Positions 1,085 through 59,900 are shown, counted from the stretch's first letter. The stretch is 64,000 nt of DNA from an uncultured Bacilli bacterium (GCA_910580135.1 CAJTXC010000001.1:2425-66424), one strand, 5' to 3'. Numbers and translations are program-made. Notes: generated from the letters alone by a model not told the origin.

Positions 1085-1103
1085 TTTCTACGGGGGAGCT
1101 AAT
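1085..1103 (+). repeat. GC-motif copy 1 (TTTCTACGGGGGAGCTAAT), intergenic
   Basis: exact core TTCTACGGGGGAG; GCTAATA-type tail. Confidence 0.8.
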
Positions 1104-1145
1104 ATACTTAGTTCTCTCGTAGATATTACTTTTAATAATATAAGT

Positions 1146-3257: not shown

Positions 3258-3880
3258 AAACTCAGTTGTACGCAAAATGTAAAGTTTGTGATTTTGAAGC
3301 ACTTCTTAAGAAAAAAGGTTATGCTTATTTTAATAAAGGTAACTATAATCTTAATATTATAGGAGTTCGTAGTAATCAAGGTAATAAAGTTACAAATAAA
3401 TATGATGACTGTCTTGTAGTAATATATAATACAGATTCTGGTTGGAAACGTCAAATATATACTATTACTACAGAACCTGGACTTAAACTTATGAAAGCTC
3501 CAAGTAATAGTAAAGGTACTGCTATTCTTGCACCTGGTCAATATCGTGGAGCTTATAAAATAGATAAACATCGTGGTAAATATGATGCTCTTTGTCAAAG
3601 GAATAAAGTTGTAAAAGTTTATCGTGATAATAATCGTAATGAAATTTATGATTATAAACCTGAGAATATTGATACAGGAATGTTTGGTATTAATATTCAT
3701 CGTTCTAATGAGTTTTGGACTCGTACTACAATAGATGGTTATTCAGCAGGTTGTCAAGTATTTAACGACCCTAAAGAATTTAATTCTTTTATGACTCTTG
3801 TTAAAAAGTCCGCTGCTATTTTTGGTAATTGTTTTACTTATACACTTATTAATGAAGAAGATATAGATGAAATGGTCTGA
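3254..3880 (+). CDS. putative peptidoglycan-active enzyme (endolysin candidate)
   Basis: 208 aa; IHRSN...YSAGCQVF resembles a His...Ser-x-Gly-Cys catalytic arrangement of YkuD/L,D-transpeptidase-like cell-wall enzymes; immediately followed by two overlapping membrane-protein genes. Confidence 0.25.
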   Translation: MKTQLYAKCKVCDFEALLKKKGYAYFNKGNYNLNIIGVRSNQGNKVTNKYDDCLVVIYNTDSGWKRQIYTITTEPGLKLMKAPSNSKGTAILAPGQYRGAYKIDKHRGKYDALCQRNKVVKVYRDNNRNEIYDYKPENIDTGMFGINIHRSNEFWTRTTIDGYSAGCQVFNDPKEFNSFMTLVKKSAAIFGNCFTYTLINEEDIDEMV

Positions 3881-4157
3881 TATAAAGAAAGGTTTAGCAG
3901 ACTGGTTTGCTAAACTATTTTTGGTAATTGGAATACTTGCTACTATTGGTGGTTTTGTTTATACTTGTTGTAGAGATAAAGAGAATACCACACCCCCCGT
4001 AGAAAGCAACAAAATAGACTCAATTATTAAAGAGAATGATAAACTTATTATTGAAGTTGAAAATTTAGATAGTATTAAAGATGCAAAAGTTATTGAAGTT
4101 AAGAGTTTGGATAATGATAGCACTCTTAGATTGTTCTATCAACTTATCGGCAAATAA
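3867..4157 (+). CDS. N-terminal TM-anchored coiled-coil protein (i-spanin-like)
   Basis: 96 aa; N-terminal hydrophobic helix FLVIGILATIGGFVYTCC followed by a charged helical region; carries a reverse-orientation GC-motif copy. Confidence 0.3.
   Translation: MKWSDIKKGLADWFAKLFLVIGILATIGGFVYTCCRDKENTTPPVESNKIDSIIKENDKLIIEVENLDSIKDAKVIEVKSLDNDSTLRLFYQLIGK
3988..4006 (-). repeat. GC-motif copy 2 (reverse complement CTTTCTACGGGGGGTGTGG), degenerate G6 variant
   Basis: inside ORF 3867..4157, read as TTPPVES. Confidence 0.7.
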
Positions 4158-4461
4158 TACTGATGTAGATAGTCTGAACCTTTCTACGGGGGAGGTAGTT
4201 CAACCTAAAGATTCTGTTCTTATTTCTTATGATGATTTAAGACTTGCTAATTCTAAACTTATAGAACTTGATTATGAAAAACAAATTAATAATAACTTAC
4301 GTTGTGTTATCGCTAATGATAGTATTATTATCCGAGATTATCAAGTTCTCAATGATAGAATTAATAAAGATTGTAAGAAAGTAACTCGTCAAAGAAATAT
4401 AGCATTTGGTGGAGCAGCATTTCTATTTCTTACTACTATTATTACATTACTTATAAAATGA
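4081..4461 (+). CDS. overlapping small membrane/lipoprotein-like protein (o-spanin-like?)
   Basis: 126 aa in another frame, overlapping the 3' 77 nt of the previous gene; N-terminal signal-like segment ending MIALLDCS (atypical lipobox) and a C-terminal hydrophobic helix; carries a forward GC-motif copy. Confidence 0.2.
   Translation: MQKLLKLRVWIMIALLDCSINLSANNTDVDSLNLSTGEVVQPKDSVLISYDDLRLANSKLIELDYEKQINNNLRCVIANDSIIIRDYQVLNDRINKDCKKVTRQRNIAFGGAAFLFLTTIITLLIK
4177..4200 (+). repeat. GC-motif copy 3 (AACCTTTCTACGGGGGAGGTAGTT)
   Basis: inside ORF 4081..4461, read as NLSTGEVV. Confidence 0.8.
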
Positions 4462-9952: not shown

Positions 9953-11236
9953 ATGGCTGTACAAGACATTGATTTTGAAGGTGCAGATAACACAGGTGGT
10001 GGTTCAAATCCTGATACCAATACTGTTGTGCCTGATAACAAAGATGATGTTACTCATCTTAATGGTGGTGATGTAGATGATATTACAAATGGTTCTACAG
10101 ATGACAACAAAGATAAACCAGATGATAAAGGTGATAGCAACAATGATAATCACAACGATGACACTTCTACGGGGGAGCTAAATGCTGGCGACCAACTTGA
10201 AGTAGATGGTGTTGTTTATACTGTTGCTGAAAATGGTGACCTTGTTGATGACAAAGGTAATGTTTTTAAAGAAGCTAAAGATGTAGCTGAATGGCTCAAA
10301 TCTGTAGATGTTACAAACGAAAATGAAGATTCAACTCTAAATCTTGCTTCTATTCAGGAAGCTGTAGGTATTACAGTTACTGATGAAAATGGTAAAACTA
10401 TAGAGTTTACAGATGATGCTGATGGCGTTAAGTCATATATTGACTCTGTTATTGCTCTTAGGTCTACTGAACTTCAAGAAGCTGCTGTTAATCGTCTTTA
10501 TCAAGATAATCCTCTTCTTAAACAATTCCAAGATTATGTTCAGCTTAAAGGTACAGCTAAGGGATTTGGTGATATTCCTGACCGTAGTGGTATTAAACTT
10601 GACAAGAATAACGAAGCTCAACTTGTAGCTGTAATTAAGATGGCTGCTCAAGAATTTGGTAATAAGAGTCTTAACGATAATTATATCAAATATCTTCGTG
10701 ATAGTGGTGGTCTTTACGATGAAGCTACTAACCAGCTTGCTGCTCTTGTAGATAAAGATAAAGCATATCGTCAACAAATTGAAACGCAGGCTGCTGAACA
10801 GCGAAAACAAGAAGCTGATGCAAGAGCTTCTTATTGGGAGAAAGTTAATAATATGATTAATAGTCGTGTTATTAACGGTTATAAAATTCCTGATAGTTTT
10901 ACAAGAGAAGTTGACGGTAAGAAAGTTGTTATTACACCTAATGATTTCTTTACATATCTTTCTGAGGCTACTGTTGAACAAAAAGATGGTTCTAAGATTA
11001 CAGCTTATCAGAATGATTTAGCTAAACTCACTGATGATGAGTTTATGGCTCGTGAAATGCTTGATGCTTGGCTTATGTTTACAGGTGGAACATATAAAGA
11101 TTTAATTGATATGGCTGTTAAAGAAAACGAAGTTCGTCGTCTTATTGTCAAATCTAAACAATCACGTTCTGCTAAATCTGTTAAAGTTGTTAAAAAGCAA
11201 GACGGTAAGACAAGTATTGATGATATAGTTCTTTAA
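9953..11236 (+). CDS. putative scaffolding/head-assembly protein
   Basis: 427 aa directly upstream of the MCP candidate; N-terminal 80 aa D/N/G-rich acidic disordered region then Q/E-rich helical segments; contains a GC-motif copy. Confidence 0.3.
   Translation: MAVQDIDFEGADNTGGGSNPDTNTVVPDNKDDVTHLNGGDVDDITNGSTDDNKDKPDDKGDSNNDNHNDDTSTGELNAGDQLEVDGVVYTVAENGDLVDDKGNVFKEAKDVAEWLKSVDVTNENEDSTLNLASIQEAVGITVTDENGKTIEFTDDADGVKSYIDSVIALRSTELQEAAVNRLYQDNPLLKQFQDYVQLKGTAKGFGDIPDRSGIKLDKNNEAQLVAVIKMAAQEFGNKSLNDNYIKYLRDSGGLYDEATNQLAALVDKDKAYRQQIETQAAEQRKQEADARASYWEKVNNMINSRVINGYKIPDSFTREVDGKKVVITPNDFFTYLSEATVEQKDGSKITAYQNDLAKLTDDEFMAREMLDAWLMFTGGTYKDLIDMAVKENEVRRLIVKSKQSRSAKSVKVVKKQDGKTSIDDIVL
10164..10183 (+). 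repeat. GC-motif copy 4 (CTTCTACGGGGGAGCTAAAT)
   Basis: inside ORF 9953..11236, read as TSTGELN. Confidence 0.8.
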
Positions 11237-16752: not shown

Positions 16753-16986
16753 ATGTATGATGATGTAATTAGAAAGAATATACTTGATGACCTTGAGGGC
16801 AAAGTTATGAGTATTGTTAATACTTCTATAGCTTTAGCCTCTCAAGGCTATCTTGTTAATAAAAGTAAGTATATTAGACTTGATTGGTCTAGCTTGCTTC
16901 TTCATGCGTTTGAAAATATAGATGTTCTTAAACCTGAACAACAACATTGTGTAGAACTTCTTTATAATAGACTTTCAACAATATGA
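16753..16986 (+). CDS. hypothetical protein
   Basis: 77-aa ATG ORF overlapping the next gene start by 4 nt. Confidence 0.35.
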   Translation: MYDDVIRKNILDDLEGKVMSIVNTSIALASQGYLVNKSKYIRLDWSSLLLHAFENIDVLKPEQQHCVELLYNRLSTI

Positions 16987-17738
16987 GTGAATTAAAACCT
17001 ATTGAACCAGAATATATTTATGTTACAATTCCAGCTGAATATATTTGTGTTTATCATCGTATTCTTGCTATGATGGCTGATTATGGTGAAGAAATGCTTA
17101 AAGATTGTAAAGCTAGTTGTACAGATAAAAATTCTGGTGTGATTGAATGTTTTAATATGTTTAATTCTGCTGTTGCAGCAAGAAAACTTGGAAAAGACAA
17201 ACTTGCTTCAGTTATTATTACATATGTTAAAGCTAAAATCAATCAAATATATAAAGGTAAAGATAATAGTACAAGTTTTGTTTTTCCTGTAGATGAAACA
17301 GGACAACTAAAAGCTTTTGTTAGTTGCGGAGAACGTCCTCGTTTTGAGATTAATGCAGACGATGGAGAACTCTATGAACATAAACTTGGAAACGGTTTTG
17401 ATGAGCATTTTCGTCTTGGTCCTGAAGATGAGTCTAAAGATGATATAAATACTAGCTCCCCCGTAGAAAGTTTGGGGCTTGATATTATTATGACTCCTCG
17501 TTATGAAGAAATAGATGGTGAAATGCGTCCTTGTGCTGATATTACAGTATTGTATAATGGTTATCCTATAAATGTTAATAATACTTCTTATCAGTATTAC
17601 TTTGATGATAAGCCTGTGATTAGGTTTAACGATGTTGTGAACCTTTCTACGGGGGTGCATAATTTCAAAGTTGTTGTTACTTATAATGGTCAAACTAAAA
17701 TAGAAAGTGTAGATAAATATTATGCAGCTACAAATTGA
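16983..17738 (+). CDS. hypothetical protein
   Basis: 251 aa; carries two GC-motif copies in opposite orientation 188 bp apart. Confidence 0.4.
   Translation: MSELKPIEPEYIYVTIPAEYICVYHRILAMMADYGEEMLKDCKASCTDKNSGVIECFNMFNSAVAARKLGKDKLASVIITYVKAKINQIYKGKDNSTSFVFPVDETGQLKAFVSCGERPRFEINADDGELYEHKLGNGFDEHFRLGPEDESKDDINTSSPVESLGLDIIMTPRYEEIDGEMRPCADITVLYNGYPINVNNTSYQYYFDDKPVIRFNDVVNLSTGVHNFKVVVTYNGQTKIESVDKYYAATN
17453..17472 (-). repeat. GC-motif copy 5 (reverse complement AACTTTCTACGGGGGAGCTA)
   Basis: inside ORF 16983..17738, read as SSPVES. Confidence 0.8.
17640..17660 (+). repeat. GC-motif copy 6 (AACCTTTCTACGGGGGTGCAT), degenerate variant
   Basis: same ORF as copy 5, 188 bp away in opposite orientation; read as NLSTGVH. 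Confidence 0.7.
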
Positions 17739-20961: not shown

Positions 20962-23900
20962 ATGATTTATAACAAAGGTGAAGAACATATGGATAATCCT
21001 ATTCCTGTAACTGAGGAAAATTTAGGATTTAACACTCCTTGGGAAGGTCATACTTCTAAAGAGATTGAAAGTTATGTATGTTCTGTTTTTGAAAAACTAT
21101 CTGAAAGTTCATCTGCACGATTTACTCTCACTCTTGTAGATGGAAATCTTATTAACTTTGTTGATGGAGTAGATAACATTGTATTCCGATATAAAGTTAA
21201 GTATGCTTCTTCTGAAGAAGTCTTTAATACGTATCGTTTGAGCATTACAGTTAATGGTCAGATTATTCAAGATGGTTATCAGTCTTCTTCTGAAGATGAA
21301 ATTCTAACATCTCCTAATCTTGCTCAGTATCTTAATTCTACAAATGAAAGTACTGTAATAGTTCGTATTCGTGCTTACGATTTGGATGAAAACAATAATG
21401 TAATTGCACAGTCGAGTAATACTATTACATTTAACCGAGTAGTTGGTACACTTGCCCTTCAAGGTATGGTTTTTGGTGCAGTCAATCCTAATGGTATTAG
21501 ATATACTGCTGATTTTGTTCCAACTACTGCTGCTCCTGTAGCTTATCTTAGGTATAAAGTAACTCAACCTGATGGTAGTCTTGTTACATTCACAGACTCT
21601 TCTACGGGGGAGGTAAATAACTATAATGAAATTCCTGTTAGTGCTTCTGGTACTGTAACTGTTCCACTACCAGATAATCTGAGTGATGGTGTTCATACTA
21701 TAACTGCTAAATTAATTGTAGGTAAAACTCAATCTGTTGAAGGTATTTCTACTAACACAATAGTTTACAATTTCCTTACTGTTTCAGATACTGTTGCAGA
21801 TGGAACTCCATTTATTATTGTGGATAGTGTAGATAGTCCTGTTCAGAATGATTATACTCCTGTTAGATATCTTGTTTATATTAAAGGAAAAGAAGCAAGT
21901 TATACTACTCCTCTTCTTTTACAAGATTATTTTAATAATAAGTATAATACTCAAGCTATTAAGAATGTAAAAAATGGAACTATTTATACTTGGAATTATT
22001 TTGTTCCTAATCTTACATCTCTTGGAATGATTACTTGCCAACTCCGTTTTGCTCTTCCTAAAATGCAAAATGGACAAATTGTTTATAATAATAATGGTGA
22101 ACCTCAAATAGACGGTACAGCAGGCACATATAAATCTATTTCTTTTACACCTAAACCAAGTACTATTCCTTGGAATCAAATGGAAGATACATTCCATCTT
22201 TCTGTTAGAAATAAAAGTAATGACGATTATGACGTTGGTACTCTTAAAGATAATGGATATGAAATGGAATTTGAAGATTTCCAATGGAATACTTCTGGTA
22301 GTGGTTATACTCAATTAACTATTGATGGTGTTACATCTAATGTTCTTAAATTTGTAGGTAACAGTAAAGCTACTATTAAAAATTTCTTCCCGTTCTACGA
22401 TACTACTCCTTATAATGCTGCAAATTCTGTAGGTGGTGGTATTCTTGCTACAGGTCGTACTCTTAAGATTAAGTTTGCTGTATCTAATGTTTCTAATGCT
22501 GAAGCTAAAGTTATAGATTGTTATGATGATAGTAATCCTGGTATGGGTTTCTATATTACTGGTAACGGTATGTATCTTAAGTTTGTAGAAGAACTTGTAA
22601 GTAAACCTGAAGAGTATCAAACTGCATCTGGTCATAACGATAGACGTTTTAGTGAAAATAAATGTATTGAACTTTGTATTACTATTCAACCATATTGGGG
22701 TGCTGGTAATATAGAGTCTGCTCATGAAGTTCGATACTATATTAATGGTGAGCTTGCTGGTTTCCGTAAGATTGCTGCTACAACGTCTTTGAGTCAAGTT
22801 GTACCTAAAACTATATCATTTGGAGGTAAAGGTGCTATCTTGTATCTTTATGAAGTTAAATATAAGAATAAATGTATTACTCCTTTTGAAGTTCTTCAAG
22901 AATATGGTATGAGTCAAGATAGTTCTAAGGCTCTTAACAACTTCTATGAAAAGAATAGTTTTTATACTCTTCGCACTAATTCAAATGGGGAAACTTATCC
23001 TGAAATTACTCTTAAGGATGCAATTAACTATGGTAAATATTTAGCAAGCAAAGGAGTAACTGATTTTGCTGTTTTTGTTACTACTAATGATTGTAACGCT
23101 GAACGATATACTGCTAATGGTGGTAAAGCTAACACAAAAGAGTATGCTCAAGATGCTGAATCTTTATATATTTATAGATTCCGTCAAAATGAAAAAGGAG
23201 AAGGTGAAATTGACCCTGATATGACTTTCTATATCGAAGGTCATGATGATAATGAAGAACAAACTTGGTATCTAGGTGAAGAAGATGGTGAAACTAAAGG
23301 CGCTCTTCGTTTTCGCCGTCAAGGTACATCAACAGCTGATGGTACTAAAGGTAATATTCGTTGGGATGTTCGTGCAACTTGTCTTCTTCATAAGTTTAAT
23401 CCTGCTACTCAGAGATTCTTTGATGAATATACTAAGATTAAGAAAAAATGGGAAGGATTTTATATTCCTGATAAAAATGCTATTCCTTGTTTCCTTGTAA
23501 CAGCTAAAAAGAATGTTAATGAGTCTACTCATACTCGTAACGTTCCTACAGCTAAATGGTTTGAAGCTTGTTCTCGTGCTCTTGCTAAAGCAGATGAGAA
23601 ATATGAGGATATTCTTACTCCTCCTCAAAGGGCTGAATTAAAGAGTATTCAAACTGCTTATCCTAGTCTTAGTCGTTCACAGCAGATTGACAGAATTAAG
23701 ACTCGTCAAGTTATTGACGGTATTACTTCTTTAGGATTTAGAATTCAATATTCTAAAGACGCTGCTGGTAAATATCTTCCTGTTACTGACCCAACTCTTT
23801 CTACTCTTGAATGTGAATTTATAGGTCAATATGATTTGACTACTGATAAAAAGAATATGAAAATATTTGGTTTTGGTGGTCATATTGAACATAATTCAGA

Positions 23901-30787: not shown

Positions 30788-31083
30788 TTAGGTCTAAGAA
30801 AGCTATTGCTGCTATATTTAGACAAATAGTAGATAAAATAGAAGCAGGTACTTGTGAAGTTGATGATAGAGAGTTAACTGAAATTGCTAATACATTAGTT
30901 CATCGCAAACTTAATGCAGAACAACTCGCTCATCATCTTGGAGTATCTCGTTCTACTATTACTCGTATGGTTACTGATGGTAGAATACCTCATCCTCGTA
31001 AAACTCTTGGTGGAGATAAATATTGGTGGCAAGATGAAGTTGAAAATCATATAGCCGATTATAATGCAAAATATGGCTTGTAG
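30784..31083 (+). CDS. AlpA/Xis-family helix-turn-helix DNA-binding protein
   Basis: 99 aa; EQLAHHLGVSRSTITRMVTDGRIPHPRKTLGGDKYWWQDEVENHI matches the AlpA-family HTH (LGVSRSTIxRxxxxGxFP ... W...E...WI). Confidence 0.55.
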   Translation: MIRSKKAIAAIFRQIVDKIEAGTCEVDDRELTEIANTLVHRKLNAEQLAHHLGVSRSTITRMVTDGRIPHPRKTLGGDKYWWQDEVENHIADYNAKYGL

Positions 31084-34496: not shown

Positions 34497-34518
34497 GCGC
34501 TCCCCCGTAGAAAGGTTG
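34497..34518 (-). repeat. GC-motif copy 9 (reverse complement CAACCTTTCTACGGGGGAGCGC), intergenic
   Basis: 108 bp upstream of the HNH gene; a partial CGGGGGAG copy lies at 34584-34596. Confidence 0.8.
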
Positions 34519-34625
34519 TGAAACTTAATTGTTATTATTAAGGTGTTAGTATAATAATTAGTAAGTGTACTATTAATCAACCTAATCGGGGGAGTGTTCT
34601 TAATAATAAAATCAATAGTAAATGT

Positions 34626-40500: not shown

Positions 40501-41973
40501 GTTGAAACATATAAAACTTATTATAATAATACTTCAGAGCAAACTACAGATAATTCTACTCCTACAGGAAGTGTAGTTCTTAGACTTTTTAAGAGTCTTA
40601 TGATGAGTTCTACTTATATGCTTCCTGCAATGTATAAAACTTATACAAAGAAAACTTATAGTATTTATAGAAGAAATGAAGTTACAGAATTTAATAATAC
40701 TATTCGAGCAAGTAAACTTGAAGGTGACGAATCTTCTATAAATATTTATAAATTTGAACCAAATGACTATTATAATGTGCCAACTAATAGAGGTTTAATT
40801 ATTAATCTCATATCAGTTGGTGATGCTATTTTAGTTCATACAGAAGATAGTATGTTTAGATTTTCTGGTAGTAATACAATTCAATCTTCTGATGGTGAAA
40901 TTCAACCTGCTGAAAATAATGTATTTGACACAGGTGTTTCTGAAGTTTTTGGTAGTGATTTTGGTTTTGCCGGACTTCAATATAAAACAGACCATATAGT
41001 TACTGAAAATGGCTATATCTTCTTTGATAGAGATTCTCGTATAGTTTATATGTATTCTGGTCAAGGTCAAATTGTCAAACTTAGCGATTCTATTGAAAAA
41101 CTTTTTAGACATAGACCTATTGAAAGTATTAGATTTGCTAATGATTATTATAATAATCGTTTCTTTATGTCTATTTTGTTTTATGAAGACTATACTGCTA
41201 CTGAGAACGGTAAGCCTGTAATTAAACAAAGATATTATCCTGTTACTCTTTCATTTAATATTACAGAAAACGTTAGGTCTTTTGTTAGTCTACATGATTT
41301 TTATTATGGTTATGCTTTTAATACTAAGACTAAATGCTATTTCTTAGCAGATGATATGCAAGATATTTGTACTATAGATAAAGAATATAAAGGCTGTTAT
41401 AGTAAACTTGAACTTTATAACGATAAACTTTATCTACAAAAAAGAGAAACGCAGATAATTAAGTTAGTAGATACAGATACTGCTGGAGCAGCTATTGTTA
41501 ATTATATTATTAAATTATATGATTCTATATTAGATATTATAGATAACAATAATTACGAAACAGTTAAAACATTAAATTCAATAAATTGGTGTGGAAATAA
41601 AGTAACTTCTGAATTTAGAGATATAGCTCAAAATAATGAAGTTACTCTCAATATGGTTGAAGAAGTAAATGATGTAGTTCCTTGTAAATACATAAGAATT
41701 TATTCTGATACTTGTATGAGCAATCTTTTACCTTGTACTTCAAGGTCTAATGATAAATCTATTTCTGCATTAGACTACACTAAATATCCTTTTTATAATC
41801 AAGGTACTTGGACTTTTAATTATTTTAGGAATATTCTTAATTCTAAAAATAATAAAACAAGATATTCTGGAGATAATAATAGTCTTATAGAAGGTAAATA
41901 TTTTGTAGTAAGATTTGTTTTCGATAGTGATTTTAAACTTGAAACTTTATATTTAAATTATAACGCAAAATGA
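37510..41973 (+). CDS. large virion (tail/cargo) protein
   Basis: 1487 aa; N/I/Y-rich with beta-rich low complexity; contains an A8 homopolymer at 40315-40322. Confidence 0.4.
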   Translation: MAQIIPKLNLNKTPSIIESNSLVFAKNIRLDIDGSIHKDYGVFPMSIHKGKNTDNLVNYKTILNRIISDIEESTKGTETPEDYILLSYVHLQWISGKEIKDEDNNVIASKGTHKIVGIISNSNEFYIFINGNCVRGTDSNGKDITEVYNFIICYDEKEDRFYPCNCNWNWSGGTITGCVINNLLGEKILNIGEKDATTLVPLKCINLNTSTIGDDERIYTQTSNIPITNLNFIGSFNYVIPNGVYQFFVRYKIRDNFYTDWFPASKELFAGNKNINNTSFGTVKFVNTHRDSDNSFKFSVEHLFINQKYNYQSFQIGFIISHDDAIMARAWKHFDFNVNTINFDYNARDAYEIEVIDLLKSAYQLYDVGNITSFKNRLYIANYKETDFNEDLQDKANEIRIEITDQSATSGYDGYPIIERTLNGKTVIAGLKIGEEELSFSGSNGIIDKLLRLKNNYNDESVKDAIIDAIGSNSSNGYRCGAKQWSIQISGNKQSLTGAQNQFRYSHSGNDYSGFIFQIAIQNIKVGGSYINTFTIDAILSAIYSKTRYLNESCIFINNSGAEDYQVDIEIIRKCSYTHKHWVPNGMKPYDPSLGDDYIDVNPGGDNLGRPSDTIIGGSGGHYEYTTVNSTYTQTISLRLWGDRSKYKSTDSNLLLGYTTLIPYQKYKFYIHYVKQNGEITNGYYCNGRTGGIKTVPYKSAVDSVIFPKFTNINLPKGYVACFFSIVHVENTVATVYDINTDNTYGEASCMDINVGLMPGSDNMTIKQGFTSASGGIGDIGGVIINPDFPIIKDPIITASENNEEEQSDITPTLPPISTTQTEIKTNSAKYYYSSDTSNIRYFGADGIIQFDKDSNIVSGKVAYLVNDYTISDAEDTQLTKCTPFINPLTLSKENNVTVYSSFDNMNLLGFICAINPLHRERTIKYYTDGSSVYLKKNIEEAEDGTGAYFSLVELKNHLLDASTYDEKLTALSIINTDIEYIYSNYNLNYMGLNEDPVETYKTYYNNTSEQTTDNSTPTGSVVLRLFKSLMMSSTYMLPAMYKTYTKKTYSIYRRNEVTEFNNTIRASKLEGDESSINIYKFEPNDYYNVPTNRGLIINLISVGDAILVHTEDSMFRFSGSNTIQSSDGEIQPAENNVFDTGVSEVFGSDFGFAGLQYKTDHIVTENGYIFFDRDSRIVYMYSGQGQIVKLSDSIEKLFRHRPIESIRFANDYYNNRFFMSILFYEDYTATENGKPVIKQRYYPVTLSFNITENVRSFVSLHDFYYGYAFNTKTKCYFLADDMQDICTIDKEYKGCYSKLELYNDKLYLQKRETQIIKLVDTDTAGAAIVNYIIKLYDSILDIIDNNNYETVKTLNSINWCGNKVTSEFRDIAQNNEVTLNMVEEVNDVVPCKYIRIYSDTCMSNLLPCTSRSNDKSISALDYTKYPFYNQGTWTFNYFRNILNSKNNKTRYSGDNNSLIEGKYFVVRFVFDSDFKLETLYLNYNAK

Positions 41974-43847
41974 GTAGAATAAGACTTAAAGATGATGGTA
42001 AGCCTCGTCATAAAGCTTTATTTGGTGCAGATGGTGCTGTGATGGCTGCTGCTACATTAGCTGCTGCTGGTATTACTGCTGGTGCTACAGCTGCTGCTGC
42101 TAAATCTCAAGCTAAAGCTATGGTAGAAAATGCTAAAACTCAAGCACAATCTATAAAAGACCAAACTACTAATAGTAATAATCTTCAAAAAGAACAACTT
42201 GCTTTTACTCGTTCTCAAAATCAAGAGAACAGACAACAACAGCAAGATATTCAAACTACTCTTCAGCTTATGGCTGGACAAGAGAATATGAATGATAGAA
42301 TGGAACGTAATAAAATGCAAGTTAGACTTGGTGGTAAACCTAAACGTAGAACTATCACTGCACCTTTCTACGGGGGAGGTCAATTCCAAGTAACTGATGG
42401 TGGTGGAGTTATTCCACTTTCTGTTACACCTGACGGTTATGGTCTTTATGAGCTTTATGGTAATGACCACGAACATTATCATAAAACTTCTGGTGGAAAG
42501 AACAAAACCGGTGTTGGAATTAAATTCAATGACGGTTCTGTTGTAGAAGGAGAAGGCAACCAAAATACTAATCAAGGTGAACTTCTTTATGTTACTCCTA
42601 ATGATGCTATGTTTATTTCAAAACATAGCATTGGTGGTTTTAATCCTACTCAAGCAGTTATGAGTGGTGTTCATCCTGAACAAGCTTTTGCTATTCAAGA
42701 AACACTTAAAGATGAAAAAGGACTTAATGATGATGGTAGTAAATCTAAACGCCGTAGTCTTAAACGTATGCTTGGTGGTCCAACTCAATATCCTGAACAA
42801 GTTAATATGACACAAAATCCTAATAACGGTACAGGTTCTGTTGCAGGTGGTGTCATATATGGTATAAATAATTCAACCACCTCCCCCGTAGAAAAGCTAA
42901 AATATAACAATGCTATTGCTAAACATGGTGGTCGTATTCATCTTAAATGTGGTGGTAGACGTAAAGCTGCTTGGGGTGATTATGCTGGAGCAACTTATAA
43001 TGCAGCAGGTAATCTTCTTGGTGCTGGTATTTCTACTTGGGGAAATATGTGGGCTTCTAATAGACTTGGTAAAGCATATAATGAAGCTGGTAATATTCTT
43101 GCAGATGCTTATTCTCAAATGCATGGTATTGATATGAGTGAACTCAAAATGGAAGATTATGCTGCTCCTCATACTTTAGCTGTTGTTAGAGATGCAAATA
43201 ATATAAGTTATGACCCACAAAGAGAACGTATTCATCGTAATTCTGCTTCTGAACGTAGAGAAATAAATCGTGGAACTTTAAGTTCTGCTGCTCGTCAGCA
43301 AAGACTTGCTGCTACTAATGATAGAATGTTCCAACGTATTAGTGAAGTAGATGCTACAGAAAATAATGCAAGAGAATCTATACGACAAGGTAATGCTGAA
43401 CGTATAACTCAAACTGCTCAAGCTAATGCAGATAGAGATGTTCAAGCTCGTAGAGATTTTGGTAATCAAAGACTTTCACTTCTTCAATATAATAATAATA
43501 TTGAAAATGCTAAGATAGCGGGTATGGCTCAAGCTCGTGCTGATGCGCTTACTCAGTCTTCTATGGCTCATGCACAAGGTATGCAAGCAAGTATGTCTGC
43601 TATTGGTTCAGGACTTGCTAATTCAGGTCAAGGCTTTGCTTCTGCTTTTGATGCTGCAAGAAAAGAAAAAACAGATTTTACTAATACTTATATAGGATTA
43701 GGAGATATAGATAAAGTAAATGCTGCTATTCTTAGATATAAGCAAACAGGAGACAAATCTTTTATAAATAGTTTATTAGCTGGTAATACAATAAGTGACG
43801 AAGCTAGAGCTAAATTACAAGATACACTAACTAAAAAGAAAAGTTAA
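41970..43847 (+). CDS. virion protein with Ala-rich N-terminal hydrophobic segment
   Basis: 625 aa; GADGAVMAAATLAAAGITAGATAAAAK then Q/N-rich coil; carries two opposed GC-motif copies. Confidence 0.4.
   Translation: MSRIRLKDDGKPRHKALFGADGAVMAAATLAAAGITAGATAAAAKSQAKAMVENAKTQAQSIKDQTTNSNNLQKEQLAFTRSQNQENRQQQQDIQTTLQLMAGQENMNDRMERNKMQVRLGGKPKRRTITAPFYGGGQFQVTDGGGVIPLSVTPDGYGLYELYGNDHEHYHKTSGGKNKTGVGIKFNDGSVVEGEGNQNTNQGELLYVTPNDAMFISKHSIGGFNPTQAVMSGVHPEQAFAIQETLKDEKGLNDDGSKSKRRSLKRMLGGPTQYPEQVNMTQNPNNGTGSVAGGVIYGINNSTTSPVEKLKYNNAIAKHGGRIHLKCGGRRKAAWGDYAGATYNAAGNLLGAGISTWGNMWASNRLGKAYNEAGNILADAYSQMHGIDMSELKMEDYAAPHTLAVVRDANNISYDPQRERIHRNSASERREINRGTLSSAARQQRLAATNDRMFQRISEVDATENNARESIRQGNAERITQTAQANADRDVQARRDFGNQRLSLLQYNNNIENAKIAGMAQARADALTQSSMAHAQGMQASMSAIGSGLANSGQGFASAFDAARKEKTDFTNTYIGLGDIDKVNAAILRYKQTGDKSFINSLLAGNTISDEARAKLQDTLTKKKS
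42362..42384 (+). repeat. GC-motif copy 10 (ACCTTTCTACGGGGGAGGTCAAT)
   Basis: inside ORF 41970..43847 in a different frame, read as APFYGGGQF. Confidence 0.8.
42874..42897 (-). repeat. GC-motif copy 11 (reverse complement GCTTTTCTACGGGGGAGGTGGTTG)
   Basis: same ORF as copy 10, read as TTSPVEK. Confidence 0.8.
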
Positions 43848-49900: not shown

Positions 49901-52900
49901 ACAACTTGAACTTATGTTTAGAAATCATGATGCAATAGTTGCTAGTCAAGATAGTGCTTTTATAGATGAAGAAAGTGAGGAAAACTCCACAAATTTAGAA
50001 GGCGATACAGACACTATTAACCCAGACCTTGACAATTACACAGGAACAACCGAACAAGACGACACAGAGCAAGTAATCGGGCAAAATGACGATATTACGC
50101 AGCCGAATGACCCCCAAAATATCTCAAACCGAACTCCTGCTTATTATGCTAAATTTTGGTTTCCAAAAGGTGTTCTTTCAAGTAGTAGACATAGTAGCAC
50201 AGATAACGGTGGAGCAGCAGTTTACGATAATGGAGATGGGACATTTACTTTAGATGTTCGTGATGATAAAAAAGCTCTTAACGATTCTCGTTTCTTTGCT
50301 AATGCTGATGAAGTAGATTTAACTCGTCCTTATGAAATAGTAGAAAAACCTATTCTTAAAAAGAATAAAAAAGGTAAACTTGAAGTTTATAAACAAGGTA
50401 GACTTGTTAATACTGATACATTAGAATATCAAGCTGCTCAACAAGCAGAAACTCAAGAAGAAGTTCAAGATGAAGTTCAGACTGAGGAAACTCAAGATGA
50501 AACAGTTGAACAACCTATTGAACATACTACTGAAGAAGAAGTTGAAGAAACTACTCAACCTGAGCAAGTAGAAGCTGACAACCCTTCTACGGGGGAGGTA
50601 GTTGCTGAAACTACTTCAGTTAATACAGAAAGTTCTGCTCCTGTTTCTGTTTATGATGAAGTTGTTCCAGATGAAGTTACTACAGAAGATGAAATTCGTA
50701 TGGCTAGTCTTGGAAGATTTCAAAAAGAATTTAAAGCTAATAATGATGTAGATTTAGATTCTATTGCTAGTGAAATCATAAACGAAGAAGTTAGAAAAGG
50801 TAGAGATAGACAAATGGTAGAAGCAGCTGTTAATAAATCTCTTTCTATTATTAAACGAGTAATAGAGCGTAAAAGAGGAAAAGCTGCTGATTCTGTTATG
50901 CAAAGTTCTGTTGATGAAGTTATTGTTCAATCAAGTATTGTAGAGCTTACAGCTAGAAATCCTTTTATTAAAGATTATACTGATGCTGTTAAGTCTATGA
51001 TAAATGAATTTTGTAAGGAAGTAGGTATAAATGAATATAATGGCAAAAAGTATATCAATCTTGAAGATTTACTTAGATATGTAAATACTATAACAAATGA
51101 TAGTCAAACTTCTAATATGATGTTTGACGCACTTAAAGTTTATCTTACTACAGACGAAGCTAAAAAAGAGTTTATAACAACTGATGAAACTCAGAATAGT
51201 GATACTCTTAAAAAGAATATAGCTAAGTCTGCTGCTCAACGTTATCAAGAAAGACTTTCTGATACTACTACACAACGAGTAGATATTTGGAGTCTTCGTA
51301 GAACTATGTCTTCTAATAAAGAACTTCAAGAATTTGAAGAAGCACTTGAGGCTATACAAAAAGGAGATAAACTTACTTATGTAAAAGAAGATAAAAGAAT
51401 TGTTCTTAAAGATTCTAAAGGTAGAATTGTCGGTACTTTAGCTATTCCAAGTATCAATCCTAAAACTGGTGCTTATGAAATAGCTAATGATGGTTGGAGA
51501 TATGATATTATTTCTCAAACTGGTGGTAATATAAATAGTAATCTTAAAACCCTATTTTCTCGTTGGCTTAATGAAGTGAATGATGCAAGTAAAGAACTTA
51601 ATGCTATTATTTACGAATTAGCATTTGAAAATGTAAGTCCTGAAAGAAAGAAAGAACTTCTTGTTAAATTTGCTAATAATTCTGAAATTAAATCTGCCAG
51701 AAATAATGGTTTTATAGATGCTGCTGCAACTAATGAAAAACTTATTAATGGTCTTGTTAAACTTTGGAGATACCAAAATTATACAGATGGAGATGTTACT
51801 ACTTTACGTAATAAACGTATTGATAGAACATTGAATACTTGGTTTAGCAAACTTCGTAATAGTTATGATGGAGTTAGTTATCTATTAAATGAAGAAAATG
51901 GAGAAATAGAAGTAACTAATATTAGTGATGGCGAGATAATTAGAGCTTCAGAAACTAATGGACAAGAAGCTGCTCTTCCTGTTAATAAGGCAATAGCTGG
52001 TGGTGTAAATCCTTCTATTCATAAATTAGCTATAGCCTCTAATAACGCTAATCATCTTACTGTTTCAGGTATGCCTGATATTCATTTTTCTGGTGTAGGT
52101 AAAATGAATACTTTTGTTCTTTTACCTAATAGAAACGGAAGTTATGAATATGTTCAAGCATATCCTGCTGATATTACTGATGATTATATAGGAAAAGATG
52201 CCAAAGAAATAATTAAAGCAATTCAAGATAGAGTAGAACAACTAATTGAAACTCATGTTAAACAACCTACTCAAGAAAGTTTCGAAGCTATTAAATCTTT
52301 TGTTAAATCTGTTCTTAGTAATCATAATGGTAATAGTAGTCTATTTTGGAATCTTACTCTTTTTGAACAAGGTAATACTTTTGGTATTTCTTTGAATAAA
52401 GATACTAAGATTGTTATAAATGCTACAACAGGGCAAGTAGATATTTCTAAATCAGAATATAAACCTAATAAAAAAGGATTTAGACAAATAAGGGTTGATT
52501 TAAATAGTAAACAAGCTAAAGATGCAATATCTGAACTATTAAATAATCTTAGATTTAATCTCAATCCTACTTATATAGCTTCAGATAATGCTACAAATAC
52601 TATTTTAAATGGTATAGTTAAACGTAGAAATGGTAAATTTGAAATAACTATTGGAGATAGGACTTGGTCATACGATAGTTTCAATGATTTTATACTTTCT
52701 AATAATCTTGTTAGACTTAATACCAAACCAAATGAAAGAGGAACAAGTAATTTTACTCCTCGTGGTAGTCGTAGTCAAAGTGGTAATCAAGTATTAGAAA
52801 TTAGAATTAATAGTACAACCACCTCCCCCGTAGAAAACCTCATAGAAACTCAATCTACTGAACCTGTTATTCCAGATACTAAAAACATTTCTATTCCTGA

Positions 52901-53960: not shown

Positions 53961-56900
53961 ATGAGTTGTAATCTTTTTATAGATAGCACAGAAGTTAATA
54001 ATGCTATTGTAGCAGCAAGTAAAGGAAATAGTATTCTTGCTACAAGATATACTCTTGAATTTAAGAGTGAAGCGTTTGCTAAAGAACTTAAAGATAAATT
54101 AGGATTAAGTATTGATGAAATTCCTAAAAATAAACTTAATGAAGTAGTCAAACTTCTGCAAGAATATCATAATAGACTCTATCCTGATATTAATTATAGT
54201 ACCAAGCTTAATACGAGTGATTCTCCAATCACTCGTTTCGGGTATGATAGTGTTGCTACTCGTGAATTTGGTAAGAAACTTGCAGCTAATTTTATGTTAA
54301 GTGCTTATCATCAACTTGTTCATGATAAAGGTAAAACAATACAACAAGCTCTTAAAGAAATTAAAGAGAAAACAAAGAAAGATATATCTCCAAGAGATTA
54401 TTTTGCTAATACTGTAGTAGCTAAAGTTAAAAAACTTATTATTGAAAGAATTGTAAGTAGAAAATTAACTACTAAAGAAGAAGTTTTGCAATTAATGAAA
54501 ACAAATAATACTGCAAAACTTGAAGAACTATTTGCAAAAGATAATCGTATTGAAGATGCCAATCTTCTTGCTATGTATAAAGAAATACTTGGCAATAGAC
54601 GAGCTTTCTTTGAAGAAGTATTTCGTAATAACGCTCTTGGAGAACTTAGACTTAAGAAACAGCCTATAGCAGAAGATACTTCTTATGAAGCAATAGATGA
54701 ACAAGTAGAAGAAGAACTAGATTCTGAAGAAGGAAATGATTCTCCTACTGATGATAAAAACAATTCTATTAAAGAATTGAATGAAAAACTTGGTGACTAT
54801 AATAACTTTATGACTCATGTTGGAATGAGTATCAGAGGTTATTTTTCAAGTCTTCCTAGAATTATAAATGGTGAAAAATCTAACGGTAAATATGTTCAGG
54901 ATACCAATAATCCTTTTGGCATAGCAGATACAATGTCTGCTGCTCAATGTATTGCTGTTCTTTATTCTTATGGTAACTTCACTAATACAAAAACTATGAT
55001 AGATAGTATTCGTGAAATTGCTGATAATGTTCCGGGAATGGCAGCGTTTCATCAAGTTGCAGATTATCTTGACACTAATATTAGTTTTGCATTTGAAGTA
55101 TATAGAACTTTTGGTAAAGCTATTGTTAGCAAAATAGAAACTACAGATGCTAGTGGAGAATTTGGTAGTAGAACAAGTAATAGAACTGCTGATAAACTTA
55201 CTACACTTAAATTTGAATTTTTTAATAGTGCTAAGTCTACAAGTATTCGTTCTGAAGTAGAACATAGTAGTGATATATTTACTTCTATAAGTAAAAGACT
55301 TAAAGATTTACGTCAATTTAAAAAAGATATTGACTCAGATAGTTCTGTAAGTCCTGAAGATATAGAGGATTTCAATGAAGAAGTAAAGAAAGTTGCTACA
55401 GATTTATATAATCTTCTTAAACGATATTATCCTACTCTTTCAGATAAAGCTATAATAAATTATGTTAATTCTGGAAATCAAGTAGATAATCTTGCTAACT
55501 TAAGTAATATAGCTCAGCTTACAATAAAAGGAGCAGAGAAGAGTAAATTTACTTATGACAGCCGTCAAGCTGACCTTAATGCTCTTTATAGTAAAAGATA
55601 CCAACTTACACAAGCTCTTGAAAATGGCGAAAAGATAAGAAATGGTGCTTTTGAAGAAATTGAAAATCAACTTAATCAGCTTTATTCTATTGATTATGTT
55701 AGCAAAGAAACTCAAGAAGCTGCTTATCAATTAGCTGATGCCCTTGTTAAATTTAGTCTAATTAAGACTGAACTTAATTCTCGTAACGTACATGGTAATC
55801 AATCATCTGATGTTATTAACAACAGTATGATTACTAATATTATAAATACTCTTAAAGACCAAACAGCATTAGAGAATTTTGGTAAATATAAAGGACAATC
55901 CAAACAATATGATTTCAGTAATATTATGATTGAGCATCGTGATGAAAATGGAAATCTTATTAATTATGGATTGTTTACTCAGAATCCAGATAGTAAAGAA
56001 CTTACTCCTACTCCTTATGCTTACAGACTTCTTCAAAATACTTTATTTAGTGGTGCTGGTAGTGTAGTAGATGGTAAAAATGTTCTTTATTCTGAAATGA
56101 GTAGAGGTGACTATACTACTACAGCTTTCATTAATTTCTTTAGAACTGAAGATGATTTTAGTCAACAAACTGAAGCTGATAAAATAGCTTTTGCAGAATA
56201 CTTTATGCGTATTCCATCTGATGCTCCTAAGAATTTTATTATTAAAGCTCCTAAATATTCTGTTAATGGATTGTTTACAAAAGACGGTGTTAATACAAAT
56301 CATCCTATTTTCCAACAGTTTAGACAAGTATTTATACAAGAGCTTCAAGATATGGCTACAGCTATAAATGTTCTATTTGAACATGAAAGTGGTAAAGTTC
56401 GTCTTGATACAGATGAAAAATCACCTACTTATGGTATGCCTATATTTAAGCCTGGATTTGCTAATGATGCAGAAACTGCTCGTAAACTTTATAATAACTA
56501 TCATACTAAGAAAGGTAAAATTCTTAAAAAACTTTCTACAGGTCAATATAGTCTTTTAGGAGATGTATTTACTTCTGATAGGTTTAAAGTTACTATTCTT
56601 AATGAAAATGGTAAACTTGAAGCTGTTAATTTTGCTGATGAGATATTAAAACATTTCAATCTTCTTTACGGGGGAGCTAATAATACTTATCTCCATACAA
56701 CTACCACAAGCAATGGCGTGACTGTTCAACTTACCGATGAACAAAGTGCTATTATAAATGAACAACTTTCTAAGTTTATTATAGCTTACTCAAGTAGAGC
56801 TGTAAATGAGCTTAATGTTTATAGGAATTTTATTCCTGAAGGACTTCTTACAAAACGTAATGCGGCTGAATTTGCTCTTAATCATAGACTTATGTATATT

Positions 56901-59900
56901 AACTTCAATGATTTATTTGAGGGAGATACTAAGTTTTATAAAGATACACAAACTTTTCTTAAACGTGCTAAAGAAGCACAAGGTTCTGGTGTTCCTTATG
57001 GTATTGTAAATTATCAAATGGATTTATCCGAAGAACCTACTCTTGTTGAAAGTCCTCTTAATAATATAACATTTAATCACATATCTGTTGATGGAGTTAC
57101 TTCTCAAGTTAAAATAAATCAATATAGTAAATTTAGAGGAGTAACTATTAAAAATACTATTAGAACTGGTGATACAATTGGTACATTTGTAACTGATAAT
57201 AATGGTAATCCAGTTAAAGACGAAAATGGTAATTATAAGTTTGAAAAGCCTGGAGTTTTAGCTAAGACTCTTATAGATGCTCTTGTTGCATCTGGCATGA
57301 GTAAACCAAATGCTAAAATTCATGCTGCTAATATGATGGTGGGTTATACTAACACTACTGTCAATGATGCACAATCTTATATTACTTTTGAAGAATGGGT
57401 TCGTCGTATAACTGCTCGTGGTCAACTTCCTCAATATAAAGAACTTATAGATGCTGTACTTGATGAAACTAAGCCCTTAGATGCTAAAACTATTGGTCAG
57501 TTTATTCAAGTACAAAAGAACTTTTATTATGACCAACATTATAATGCTGAACTTGGAGTTATAGCTCCTCGTCAGATTAAAAATGCTGAATTTGTTATCG
57601 TTCCTCGTCTTGTTCGTGGTACACAACTTGAACAAGTTTATAACTTAATGCGAGAATTTAATATCGACCAGCTTAATACAGAAGAAACTTCTAAAGCAGG
57701 TAAATGTAATGTTCTTATATTATGGGATAATGAAGGAAATTTGACTGACGCTAATATAGCAGATTTTAGAGCTAATGCTGTTCATGCTACAGAATATTAT
57801 AATTATAATTATCTTTATACTCAACAAGAAACTCCTCAACATCTTGCAGCTGAGAACAAAGCTGGTATTCAGATAATGAAGAAAATTATAGATAACATTG
57901 ATTCTAATAGTGAACTTTATCCTCTTAAACAAAAGTTCTTTAATTTATATTCTCAAAATATTGTAGATAGTTATGAGAATTTAATGCAAGAACTTCATAT
58001 TAAACAAGATGAAAATGGAGAAATAAGTGCTTTTGACCAAGCTATTCTTTATGATATGCTTAAAGAAGAAGTTGGTCGTCTTGGTCTTGATAGTAATATG
58101 ATGGATTATGTTACTCTTGACAGGGATGGTGTTCCTATGATGCCAACTTATATGAGTAATGTTTCTACTAAACTTGAAAGTATTGCTCAAAGTTTGTTTA
58201 ATAATCGTATTACTCGTCAGAAACTTCCTGGTTGGCATGCTGCTCAGATTACAAATGTTGGTTGGACTGCTCTTAACGATACAGTTGATAAACGTAGTTA
58301 TAGTAAAAAACTTCAATATCATCCTGATGGTAAGCCTTATGTTGAAATAATGCTTCCTAAGAGCAATTTCCAAAATCTTGAATATAATAAACCAGATGGT
58401 ACTACTAAAACAGATGAAGAACTATTAGCAGAACTTGCTGAATCTGGACTTGATACAATGATTGGTTATCGTATTCCAACTGAAGGTAAACAATCTGTTT
58501 GTATTATGAAAGTTGTTGGGTTTACAGATGATGCTCTTGGTTCCACTATTGTAGTTCCTGATGATTGGGTTTCTCAAACTGGTTCTGACTTTGATATTGA
58601 CTCTGTTTATGGTATTCATTTTAGTGGAGAAGTAAATAAAGAAACTGGTAAATTAGAAAAAGTTCAATATAATAAAGAAGATAAACGTTCAGATAGAAAA
58701 ACAAAAGGACGTAATAATGAACTTCTTCAAACTATGATTGATATTCTTTCACATCCAAGTTCTTTAGAGGAAAATCTTTCTCGTTCTAACTTTGAAGATA
58801 TTATCAACGATAGAGATGAAGTTATAAATTCTGAACTTGCTAAACTTAGAAAAGCTCGTTCTCCTTATGATTTCTTCGACCAAGCTGCATATCAAGAAGA
58901 TGTAATGAGTGGTGCTAAACTTAAAGCATTTAGTGTTACTCGTGATACTTTTTGTTCTATATGTAATACAGTTCGTCCGAACATTAGTGTAGGTAAAACT
59001 GTTTCTGTTATTTATAAGAAAGATGACGGTTATACTGAAGCTGGTCTTAAGAAACATTTTGGAAATATAAAAAGACTTAAAGATGGTAGTGGTTGGATTG
59101 TAACACATGATACTTTAGGTTGGACTTTAGATAATAAAAATGTTGTTGGAAAGATTCTAACAGCTTATTCATCTCAAACTACAGCTCATATTCTCGATGC
59201 TGTAAAAGAAGGTTCTATCCCTAATGTTAATGATTTTACTTTCCAAGTATATAAGTTATTTCCTGATATAGGTTCTGATTATAAAACTGCTATTGCATTT
59301 ATGATGCAACCTGGTGTTACTAGAATAGTAAATATTTATAATGCTAATAAATCTATATATGGAGAAGAATCTGGTAATGCTATAAATGAAGCTATTAAAC
59401 AAATAGCTACAGAAATACTTAAGCTTGATGGAATTTCTATTCCTAAAAATGCTAGTGTAAAAACACTACTTAATAAACTTAAAAATATTTCTTCAGAAAT
59501 AGCAGAATTATTTGATGTAGTTGAAGCTGATAAATTTAAAATAGAAGATACAGCAGCAGCTAATATGCTTAATATTTCTGCTTCTAAACTTAGAGATAGA
59601 ATTAATCAAACTGGTGAGTTTAGCACTACCTCCCCCGTAGGAAGTAGAAATCAATTACTTTATGATTTAGGTGTTATTCTACAATATAATAAACTTAATA
59701 TTTTAGCTAATGATATTTCTGCTTATGCAAGAGTTTGTAATCCTGATAAGTTTGGTGCTAAGCAAACTATTTATGCTACTGCTAAAGTATTTGATGATAT
59801 TCAAACTCTTGTAACCGCATCTAACCCTTCTCTTACTGTAAATGGTAGAAGTTTTATTGCTGCTATTTATCCTGAAGTATTTAGAGGTATAGATGGTTAT

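Follow-up and report, generated by a model that had tools for sequence, protein, structure and literature searches.

A conserved GC-rich word with lineage-specific dialects and regular same-strand spacing in crAss-like phages of the Intestiviridae

Introduction

Short asymmetric words dispersed through genomes are known from several systems. Chi sites occur about once per 5 kb in E. coli, DNA uptake sequences (DUS) come in dialects in the Neisseriaceae, and stoperators are 13-bp asymmetric sites, present 20–30 times per genome, whose dialects follow the repressor. In phages, an example is WACTRTGAC, a 9-mer associated with nicks, which has been conserved among 61 tf-like phages, mostly within genes and at 13 per 45 kb (PMC11780129). 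Here, we analyzed a 64,000-nt stretch of DNA (CAJTXC010000001.1, positions 2425–66424, assembly GCA_910580135.1, deposited as an uncultured Bacilli bacterium), hereafter called the window, which is part of a crAss-like phage genome (subfamily Obtuvirinae) and carries a dispersed 13-base GC-rich word, TTCTACGGGGGAG. This motif is kept at orthologous positions and in lineage-specific dialects across the Intestiviridae genomes compared, and its copies are evenly spaced on each strand; these three properties were missed in the initial annotation of this DNA.

crAss-like phages dominate the virome of the human gut, and the Intestiviridae are the family to which its most abundant phage belongs, but the replication, packaging, and persistence of these phages are little understood. 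The motif was not described in the literature consulted, including the 2014 crAssphage paper, the 2021 Yutin paper, and a 2023 review, although this coverage was incomplete and an earlier mention is possible. The literature on nicks, repeats, and promoters of crAss-like phages likewise gave no account of this motif or of nicks at it.

Results

A 13-base word is strongly enriched in the window

The word TTCTACGGGGGAG was found in the window in 11 exact, 2 one-mismatch, and 2 two-mismatch copies, of which 9 are on the + strand and 6 on the − strand. In 100 dinucleotide shuffles, the chance expectation for exact or one-mismatch copies was 0.01, with a maximum of 1. The initial annotation of this DNA, made from the sequence alone, had counted 15 copies (nine forward and six reverse), and our count and coordinates agree with it; with 15 copies against about 0.01 expected, the enrichment over a composition-matched null is also established. 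A weight matrix built from 55 motif copies out of three genomes returned the same 15 sites, which scored 23–33 bits, while the range from 12 to 23 bits was empty. All ten GGGGG runs on the + strand, and six of the eight CCCCC sites, belong to the motif or to the partial copy described below.

Apart from two intergenic copies (at 1086 and 34500), all lie within open reading frames (ORFs), thirteen in total, and none of the 15 falls in the genes for TerL, the portal, or the major capsid protein, as had been described. The partial copy reported near the HNH gene is real (Table 1). The extended consensus proposed earlier was, in contrast, too tight, as only about 15 nt (TTCTACGGGGGAG.T) are truly conserved. 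The peptides encoded at the motif also required some revision: the exact STGEV peptide, which had been assigned to six copies, is encoded by four (xSTGE is found in five and LSTGV in one), and TSPVE is encoded by two of the five coding reverse copies, the others reading SSPVE, TPPVE, and TSPVG. The use of another forward frame (FYGGG or LYGGA) in two copies was borne out.

The motif is respelled in each lineage but kept at orthologous places

The records nearest to the window, MH552500.1 from mouse and cr271_1 from pig, share 65–80% nucleotide identity with it and carry 21 and 19 motif copies, respectively. A copy was observed at the orthologous place in one or both of them for 13 of the 15 window sites. 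In the related Intestiviridae genomes compared, a count of the kind that had been proposed gives 19–31 copies per whole genome, and a scan of IMG/VR returned many further crAss-sized contigs with several copies each. For a comparison of recombination breakpoints, the relatives available did not exceed about 84% identity.

Dialects were compared in six Intestiviridae genomes from three subfamilies. In cr8_1, which belongs to another genus of the Obtuvirinae, the dialect is CCTTTTACGGGGSGG (in full, ACATACCT-TTTACGGGG-SGG-CTAGAG) and occurs in about 28 copies. The genome of p-crAssphage, the prototype from the human gut (Crudevirinae), contains 31 copies of a word of about 20 nt with the dialect CATCCTCYACGGGGRGT, in full (TC)CATCCTC-YACGGGG-(GGTC or AGTA), and each genomic YACGGGG is part of the motif. 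The cultured phage crAss002 (Churivirinae) has 28 copies of the dialect CTCCTYTAYGGGGGAA, in full CTCCTYTA(C/T)GGGGGAA. The dialects comprise 13–22 informative positions. The fact that twenty-odd sites were respelled together suggests that they follow a single trans-acting reader. This family-wide result is solid, and the positions of the copies within orthologous genes are listed in Table 1.

A search of 185,579 bacterial and archaeal genomes with an 18-mer form of the motif gave only three stray single matches, and the motif is thus not a host repeat. Moreover, crAss001, DAC15, and crAss002 all infect Bacteroides, and their words differ. Taken together, the absence of the 18-mer from bacteria and the different words within one host genus make a host factor unlikely as the reader.

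Sites were gained and lost by substitution

Copies that are short, dispersed, found in both orientations, and tolerated in frame could be taken for a mini-element inserting in frame, like Rickettsia palindromic elements (RPE) or miniature inverted-repeat transposable elements, or for sequences that the HNH homing endonuclease encoded nearby would target; one full and one partial copy adjoin its gene. Both ideas had been put forward in the initial annotation, and the comparison with relatives leaves them hardly any credence. Orthologous codon positions are held across three subfamilies, and copies come and go via substitution, with no indels. Site K is a case in point: its ortholog in MH552500 reads ACC TCG CCT GTA AAA (TSPVK), a decayed copy whose codon register is intact and which shows no indel. 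The copies in the primase and SNF2 helicase genes overlie conserved peptides ([FL]YGG and PVEE) and do not correspond to an insert. Furthermore, the segments of about 190 nt between inverted copies (3992–4194 and 17456–17657) have nothing in common except the motifs. As sites are gained and lost by substitution, a mobile mini-element is rejected, and the RPE-like idea can be regarded as effectively refuted.

The HNH gene (34626..35168) encodes HNH_3 and NUMOD1 domains and is a homing-type extra gene. The intergenic back-to-back motif pair beside it (copy I and the degenerate copy at 34579) is retained in cr271_1 at a place for which the annotation shows no HNH gene, and such a pair is also intact in cr8_1. 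By the annotation of cr271_1, the motif therefore does not co-occur with the endonuclease gene, and its role as an HNH target site was discarded. In the window, the HNH gene sits between the motif pair and a tail ring gene (35171..35857, CrAss_Ring_2), and the adjacent + copy of that pair has degenerated, perhaps owing to the HNH insertion.

Selection acts on the nucleic acid rather than on the protein

The codons used at the motif are the rarest of their families in the window ORFs: ACG, GGG, CCC, and TCC account for 2.0%, 2.5%, 2.7%, and 1.9% of the codons for Thr, Gly, Pro, and Ser, respectively. This use of the rarest codons indicates selection on DNA and not on protein, and the window codon usage gives a probability of about 3e-5 per site for spelling STGE as TCT ACG GGG GAG. 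Over 31 ortholog pairs, identity was 0.8–1.0 across the 13 nt and 0.3–0.6 in the flanks, and the T two bases downstream of the 13 nt was likewise conserved. At site L, the motif persists within a low-complexity stretch that has otherwise wholly diverged. Conservation is thus at the nucleic-acid level, as had been proposed, in view of the rare codons, the island of identity in diverged flanks, and the intergenic copies.

Coding pressure, in turn, bends the spelling of the motif in crAss002 and p-crAssphage. In crAss002, TAT-GGGGG was observed in six of the seven intergenic copies compared and in most antisense copies, whereas sense coding copies read TAC, a spelling by which ATG is avoided. In p-crAssphage, intergenic copies read GGGGAGT and sense coding copies GGGGGGT.

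Nucleic-acid conservation could also reflect an element acting in RNA, with sense and antisense copies pairing in a long transcript (as a long-range duplex or as RNase III sites) or with each copy forming a local hairpin. Along the direction of transcription, sense copies are usually succeeded by antisense ones, and intergenic copy A pairs with its degenerate inverted partner in a strong hairpin (DNA fold of −10.5 kcal/mol, z = −6.0). However, the coding copies examined folded no better than shuffles (z = +1.1 and −1.0) and thus lack local structure. Nor do partner copies covary, since crAss002 sense TAC faces antisense TAT as a C-A mismatch and p-crAssphage pairs mix the GGGGGGTC and GGGGAGTA forms; long-range RNA pairing is therefore not under selection. 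Cleavage within the mRNAs of the virion RNA polymerase (vRNAP), the cargo protein, or the helicase would, in addition, be destructive. We consider an RNA-level element very improbable.

Copies are evenly spaced on each strand, whatever the direction of the genes

The orientation of the copies alternates above chance in 7 of 7 genomes (permutation P 0.0003–0.03), because copies are regularly spaced on each strand and two interleaved regular series alternate automatically. The coefficient of variation (CV) of same-strand gaps was 0.31–0.43 on 10 of 14 strands, as compared to about 0.9 for random placement, with P ≤ 0.006 on nine of these ten strands and P 0.027 on the tenth, the − strand of the window (n = 6); the P values for spacing and alternation are not independent across related genomes, as the layout is inherited. 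The CV in the window was 0.38 on the + strand and 0.33 on the − strand. Mean same-strand gaps ranged from 5.4 to 13 kb, and the smallest gap per strand from 1.5 to 6.8 kb, while copies on opposite strands can be as near as 30–190 nt. The close opposite-strand pairs comprise about 10 divergent (back-to-back) loci and 3 convergent ones. Two divergent pairs of the window, B/C (3992–4194) and E/F (17456–17657), are spaced by 190 and 189 nt, or about 18 helical turns, and this spacing is retained in MH552500 with unrelated interiors.

Such regularity would be explained equally well, together with the length of the word, by the main rival to the strand-processing role that we propose in the Discussion, namely a self-identity signal of the Chi or DUS type. 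Here, one strand would be read by an enzyme that is encoded by the phage and translocates along DNA, be it a helicase-nuclease degrading whatever lacks the mark or the machinery of packaging, and the motif would switch this enzyme to a protective or permissive mode; as it reads a single strand, each strand would need a copy within its travel distance. The even per-strand spacing at 5–13 kb, near the density of Chi in E. coli, the independence of orientation from genes, and the existence of dialects, as for DUS, are all consistent with this explanation. Intergenic inverted pairs fold to hairpins, as pairs of DUS or uptake signal sequences (USS) do, and a word this long would be essentially absent from the host, as a self/non-self mark needs to be. 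The words of two Steigviridae phages, CTTCTGGAG and CTTCTGGTG, moreover resemble known Chi cores. On the other hand, Chi sites have 5–8 nt whereas 13–22 nt are conserved here, the annotations of these phages include no RecBCD- or AddAB-like enzyme, and the excess of close back-to-back pairs is not predicted. Gam-like nuclease inhibitors are annotated, so that Chi may not be needed. We therefore see a self signal as possible but unlikely.

About one third of the copies are intergenic, compared to about 10% of non-coding DNA, according to our own ORF calls. Orientation is independent of gene direction: about 40% of all copies are antisense to genes, as are 6 of the 15 in the window, where all genes are on the + strand, and across genomes about half of the intergenic copies are sense and half antisense. 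This lack of orientation bias argues against ordinary promoters.

These features bear on a role in transcription, for which two versions can be considered. The motif could be a T7-style promoter at which a phage RNA polymerase (RNAP) starts in the G run, with primers or regulatory RNAs arising from the antisense copies, or it could provide stoperator-like roadblock sites, where a monomeric repressor would act in an orientation-dependent way, as in Cluster A mycobacteriophages. A variable upstream part followed by a conserved, initiation-like ACGGGGRG recalls the layout of T7-group promoters, and the strong intergenic enrichment, the mostly sense orientation of hairpin-bearing copies, and a p-crAssphage back-to-back pair in the gap between divergently transcribed blocks point in the same direction. 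A 99-aa HTH_17 protein is also encoded in the window (30784..31083). However, the antisense copies include family-conserved ones deep in essential genes, such as that at 0.36 of the SNF2 helicase gene, the intergenic copies are without sense bias, and even spacing on the non-coding strand serves no obvious transcriptional purpose. In addition, stranded RNA-seq of crAss001 was reported to give three modules that follow ORF orientation (PMC8375218), and the early transcripts of the phi14:2 vRNAP have no common upstream motif (bioRxiv 10.1101/2020.03.07.982082). A transcription signal thus appears decidedly improbable, and ordinary promoter function unlikely.

Location of the copies and neighbouring features

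Table 1. Motif copies in the window, their orthologs, and related sites in other genomes. Positions are coordinates or, for genes, the fraction of the gene at which the copy lies.
Feature	Position	Strand or sense	Context and peptide	Orthologs
Copy A	1086..1098	+	intergenic, 48 nt upstream of ORF starting at 1146; hairpin 5' arm	MH552500 44928, cr271 3523
Degenerate inverted partner of copy A, TCTACGAGAGAAC	1111..1123	-	hairpin 3' arm	partners in relatives too
Copy B (2 mismatches)	3992..4004	-	ORF 3867..4157, TPPVE	MH552500 47830
Copy C	4182..4194	+	ORF 4081..4461, just upstream of TerL, LSTGE	orthologous position in all six Intestiviridae genomes, own dialect in each
Copy D	10165..10177	+	scaffold-like ORF 9953..11236, TSTGE	0.15-0.20 of gene in five genomes
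Copy E	17456..17468	-	ORF 16983..17738, SSPVE	MH552500 60897
Copy F (1 mismatch)	17645..17657	+	ORF 16983..17738, LSTGV	MH552500 61086, same variant GGGGGTG
Copy G	21600..21612	+	1621-aa tail protein, SSTGE	none found in relatives
Copy H	33539..33551	+	ORF 33408..33830, PSTGE	MH552500 69718
Copy I	34500..34512	-	intergenic	MH552500 70671, cr271 31904
Degenerate copy, AACCTAATCGGGGGAGTG	34579..34598	+	28 nt upstream of HNH start codon	intact + member in cr271 (31983) and cr8_1 (37796)
Copy J	42366..42378	+	ORF 41970..43847, other frame, FYGGG	MH552500 77745, cr271 39079
Copy K	42881..42893	-	ORF 41970..43847, TSPVE	MH552500 ortholog decayed
Copy L	50585..50597	+	2321-aa cargo/zincin protein, 0.53 of gene, PSTGE	sense copy at 0.45-0.53 of gene in all six genomes
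Copy M	52823..52835	-	cargo protein, 0.85 of gene, TSPVE	antisense copy at 0.76-0.85 of gene in all six genomes
Copy N (2 mismatches)	56664..56676	+	vRNAP ORF, LYGGA	MH552500 2773, cr271 55545
Copy O (1 mismatch)	59630..59642	-	vRNAP ORF, TSPVG	MH552500 5787, cr271 59060
Small gene upstream of TerL	~0.25-0.32	sense		orthologous across genomes
Scaffold-like gene	0.15-0.20	sense		orthologous across genomes
Primase	0.68-0.73	sense	orthologous across genomes; over conserved [FL]YGG in 4/5 genomes	
SNF2 helicase	0.35-0.37	antisense	orthologous across genomes; over PVEE	
Cargo/zincin protein	~0.5; ~0.8	sense; antisense		orthologous across genomes
vRNAP	~0.2; ~0.45-0.6	sense; antisense		orthologous across genomes
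UDG	0.34	sense		copy only in MH552500.1, cr271_1, cr8_1
Insert-bearing copies, p-crAssphage BK010471.1	e.g. 6029, 28080, 28180, 44956, 58730, 93670, 95872	+, -, +, -, -, -, +		
Insert-bearing copies, crAss002	4217, 47847, 86215	+, +, -		
GC-rich elements, cr127_1	e.g. 11356, 11912, 28698, 28871, 42040, 42232	+, -, -, +, -, +		

An antisense copy was observed 10–24 nt past the vRNAP stop codon in MH552500 (12767, −), cr271 (66207, −), and cr8_1 (3397, +); the window ends before this point. By eye, the 5' flank of this copy and a nearby partial copy form an 11-bp hairpin. In p-crAssphage and crAss002, some copies are followed, after about 4–8 nt, by GC-rich inserts such as GCGGAGCGAAGCGGAGC, which are not seen in the Obtuvirinae. 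These inserts contain mini-hairpins of the GCGAAGC type with 3-nt loops, are mostly in sense orientation, and lie in some cases within ORFs; they recall the hairpin promoters of the N4 vRNAP. Just upstream of copy I, a GC-rich inverted repeat (34449–34483, TAGGCT..AGCCTA around CCCCTGCGCGTCAGAG) folds no better than shuffles.

An Rfam scan of the window detected no family at the motif. Its sole match was to the Bacteroidetes FopS small RNA at 3..75 on the − strand, opposite all genes (60.5 bits; gathering score, 56), which is indicative of a Bacteroidales host or else of a host-like small RNA that was captured. A tRNA search of the window found none.

Words in other families of crAss-like phages

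Outside the Intestiviridae, the evidence for a wider pattern is only suggestive. The genome of crAss001 (Steigviridae, MH675552.1) contains no ACGGGG, and its most enriched 10-mer falls within the word YC-TTCTGGAG, which is present in 32 copies with alternating strands. In DAC15 (MT074136.1), CTTCTGGTG occurs in 24–28 copies with weak regularity, and the word is absent from the genome ends formed by direct terminal repeats. Both of these gut Steigviridae genomes are devoid of the G-run motif, and the crAss001 word CTTCTGGAG (32 copies) and the DAC15 word look like the window motif minus ACGGG. In cr127_1 (Crevaviridae, NC_055886.1, 26% GC), we found ten GC-rich elements of about 45 nt (..TAATGGCCACAAGGGCGAGAGGTGTTCCGAAAT..), five per strand, which are very evenly spaced; some of them are arranged back to back, in pairs with distances of 173 and 192 nt. 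The controls phi14:2, from a marine host, and the Bacteroides siphovirus B40-8 had no comparable word. The Steigviridae words and the Crevaviridae element hint that the signal could be widespread among gut crAss-like phages.

Discussion

The enrichment of the motif, its selection at the DNA level, its orthologous positions, its dialects, and its spacing on each strand are all direct observations, and they may be accounted for, as we tentatively propose, if the motif marks strand processing, either as a nick site or as a fixed start of priming or strand synthesis. The motif would be a cis-acting, strand-specific DNA signal, and each strand would need one copy roughly every 5–13 kb. Where there is no intergenic room, the signal would be written into loop or linker codons or into compatible conserved peptides, with the use of the rarest codons as the cost; the same spacing requirement would force copies into giant genes. 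We infer that the reader is phage-encoded and that nicking or priming is the event at the motif, and the specificity of the reader would drift between lineages. The process served would take place on individual strands, in replication, recombination, or packaging, rather than in gene expression. Each copy may thus be a site-specific nick, as in T5, phiKMV, and tf-type phages. Alternatively, the invariant AC-GGGG junction may be where primer or strand synthesis begins; the primers of T4 and T7 begin with pppAC. Two closely spaced back-to-back copies would together function as a bidirectional site, and the excess of such pairs fits outward-directed starts. Among the functions suggested in the initial annotation, nick sites and uptake- or packaging-type self signals are both viable.

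Several points weigh against a role in strand processing. To our knowledge, there is no physical evidence of nicks or primer starts for any crAss-like phage, and we know of no primases that require 13–22 nt of sequence. Opposite-strand nicks 30–40 bp apart, as they would occur in p-crAssphage (22904/22935) and crAss002 (28711/28751), would weaken the duplex, and the inherited layout tempers the spacing and alternation tests. The motif is also lacking in phi14:2, another crAss-like phage, and the signal is therefore not essential to the order. Finally, the known nick motifs are found on one strand only and show no intergenic enrichment (PMC11780129).

In a broader formulation, to which we would give somewhat doubtful standing, the Intestiviridae may write a lineage-specific identity code into both strands, essential genes included, at fixed intervals of about 5–13 kb. 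A phage enzyme would read it strand by strand, and the code would be either the phage's own counterpart of Chi or DUS or a set of fixed sites at which strand synthesis starts or nicks are made. If true, such a code would add a new class to the genome-architecture signals of viruses. In any case, DNA-level architecture overrides coding preference here with unusual clarity, in that even per-strand spacing is paid for with the rarest codons. As the motif is kept through family-level divergence and is present in p-crAssphage and in the cultured crAss002, it offers a direct experimental handle and could be used as bait for the reader, for mapping nicks or starts in existing long reads, and for recoding. 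The dialects could serve as lineage markers and may set compatibility barriers between co-infecting phages.

Comparison with known systems

The phage nick motifs of T5-, phiKMV-, and tf/LUZ24-like phages (including Rembedalsseter and tf) are, like the motif described here, short, asymmetric, enriched words that are strand-specific, conserved across diverged relatives, and mostly intragenic, at about one per 3–4 kb. The conservation of an enriched word in diverged relatives was found in the Intestiviridae as well. The nick motifs, however, are confined to one strand, are clustered in a part of the genome, and show no intergenic enrichment, and nicks have been physically demonstrated at them. 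The crAss motif occupies both strands (9 + and 6 − copies in the window, and alternating copies in all genomes tested), is evenly spaced on each, and has lineage dialects.

T7-group RNAP promoters share with it an asymmetric sequence of about 20 bp, a lineage-specific upstream part, a G-rich start, and about 15–30 copies per genome, but they are intergenic and all point with the genes. Here, about 40% of the copies are antisense and many lie deep in ORFs; in the window, 13 of 15 are intragenic and 6 of 15 antisense. The vRNAP of crAss-like phages also belongs to a different enzyme class from the T7-group RNAP. Stoperators of Cluster A mycobacteriophages, which bind the L5 repressor, are similarly 13-bp asymmetric sites, dispersed in about 20–35 copies per genome, with co-evolving dialects. 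They are oriented with transcription, belong to temperate phages, and have a known repressor, whereas the orientation of the crAss motif ignores gene direction, strands alternating within gene blocks of a single orientation, and its phages are not known to be temperate.

Chi sites, recognized by RecBCD or AddAB, are also asymmetric, G-rich, active on one strand in one direction, intragenic, variable between lineages, and spaced at about one per 5 kb. They have, however, 5–8 nt, are host-encoded, and are over-represented in the host genome, whereas the crAss motif has 13–22 nt, is absent from bacterial genomes, as searched with the 18-mer form, and varies among phages of one host genus. The DUS of Neisseria and the USS of the Pasteurellaceae are words of 10–12 nt or more that occur in both orientations, have dialects tracking the receptor, form intergenic inverted hairpin pairs, and use tolerated frames within genes. 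Both orientations, dialects, inverted intergenic pairs, and frame restriction were all observed here. DUS and USS are nevertheless transformation signals of bacterial chromosomes, present in thousands of copies, and we know of no competence-type DNA uptake process for a lytic phage; the crAss motif is present 20–30 times in the genome of a lytic phage, its positions are orthologous, and its spacing is regular on each strand, and the likeness is one of resemblance only. The motif thus resembles nick motifs, Chi, DUS, and stoperators in kind and differs from each of them in a tested defining feature.

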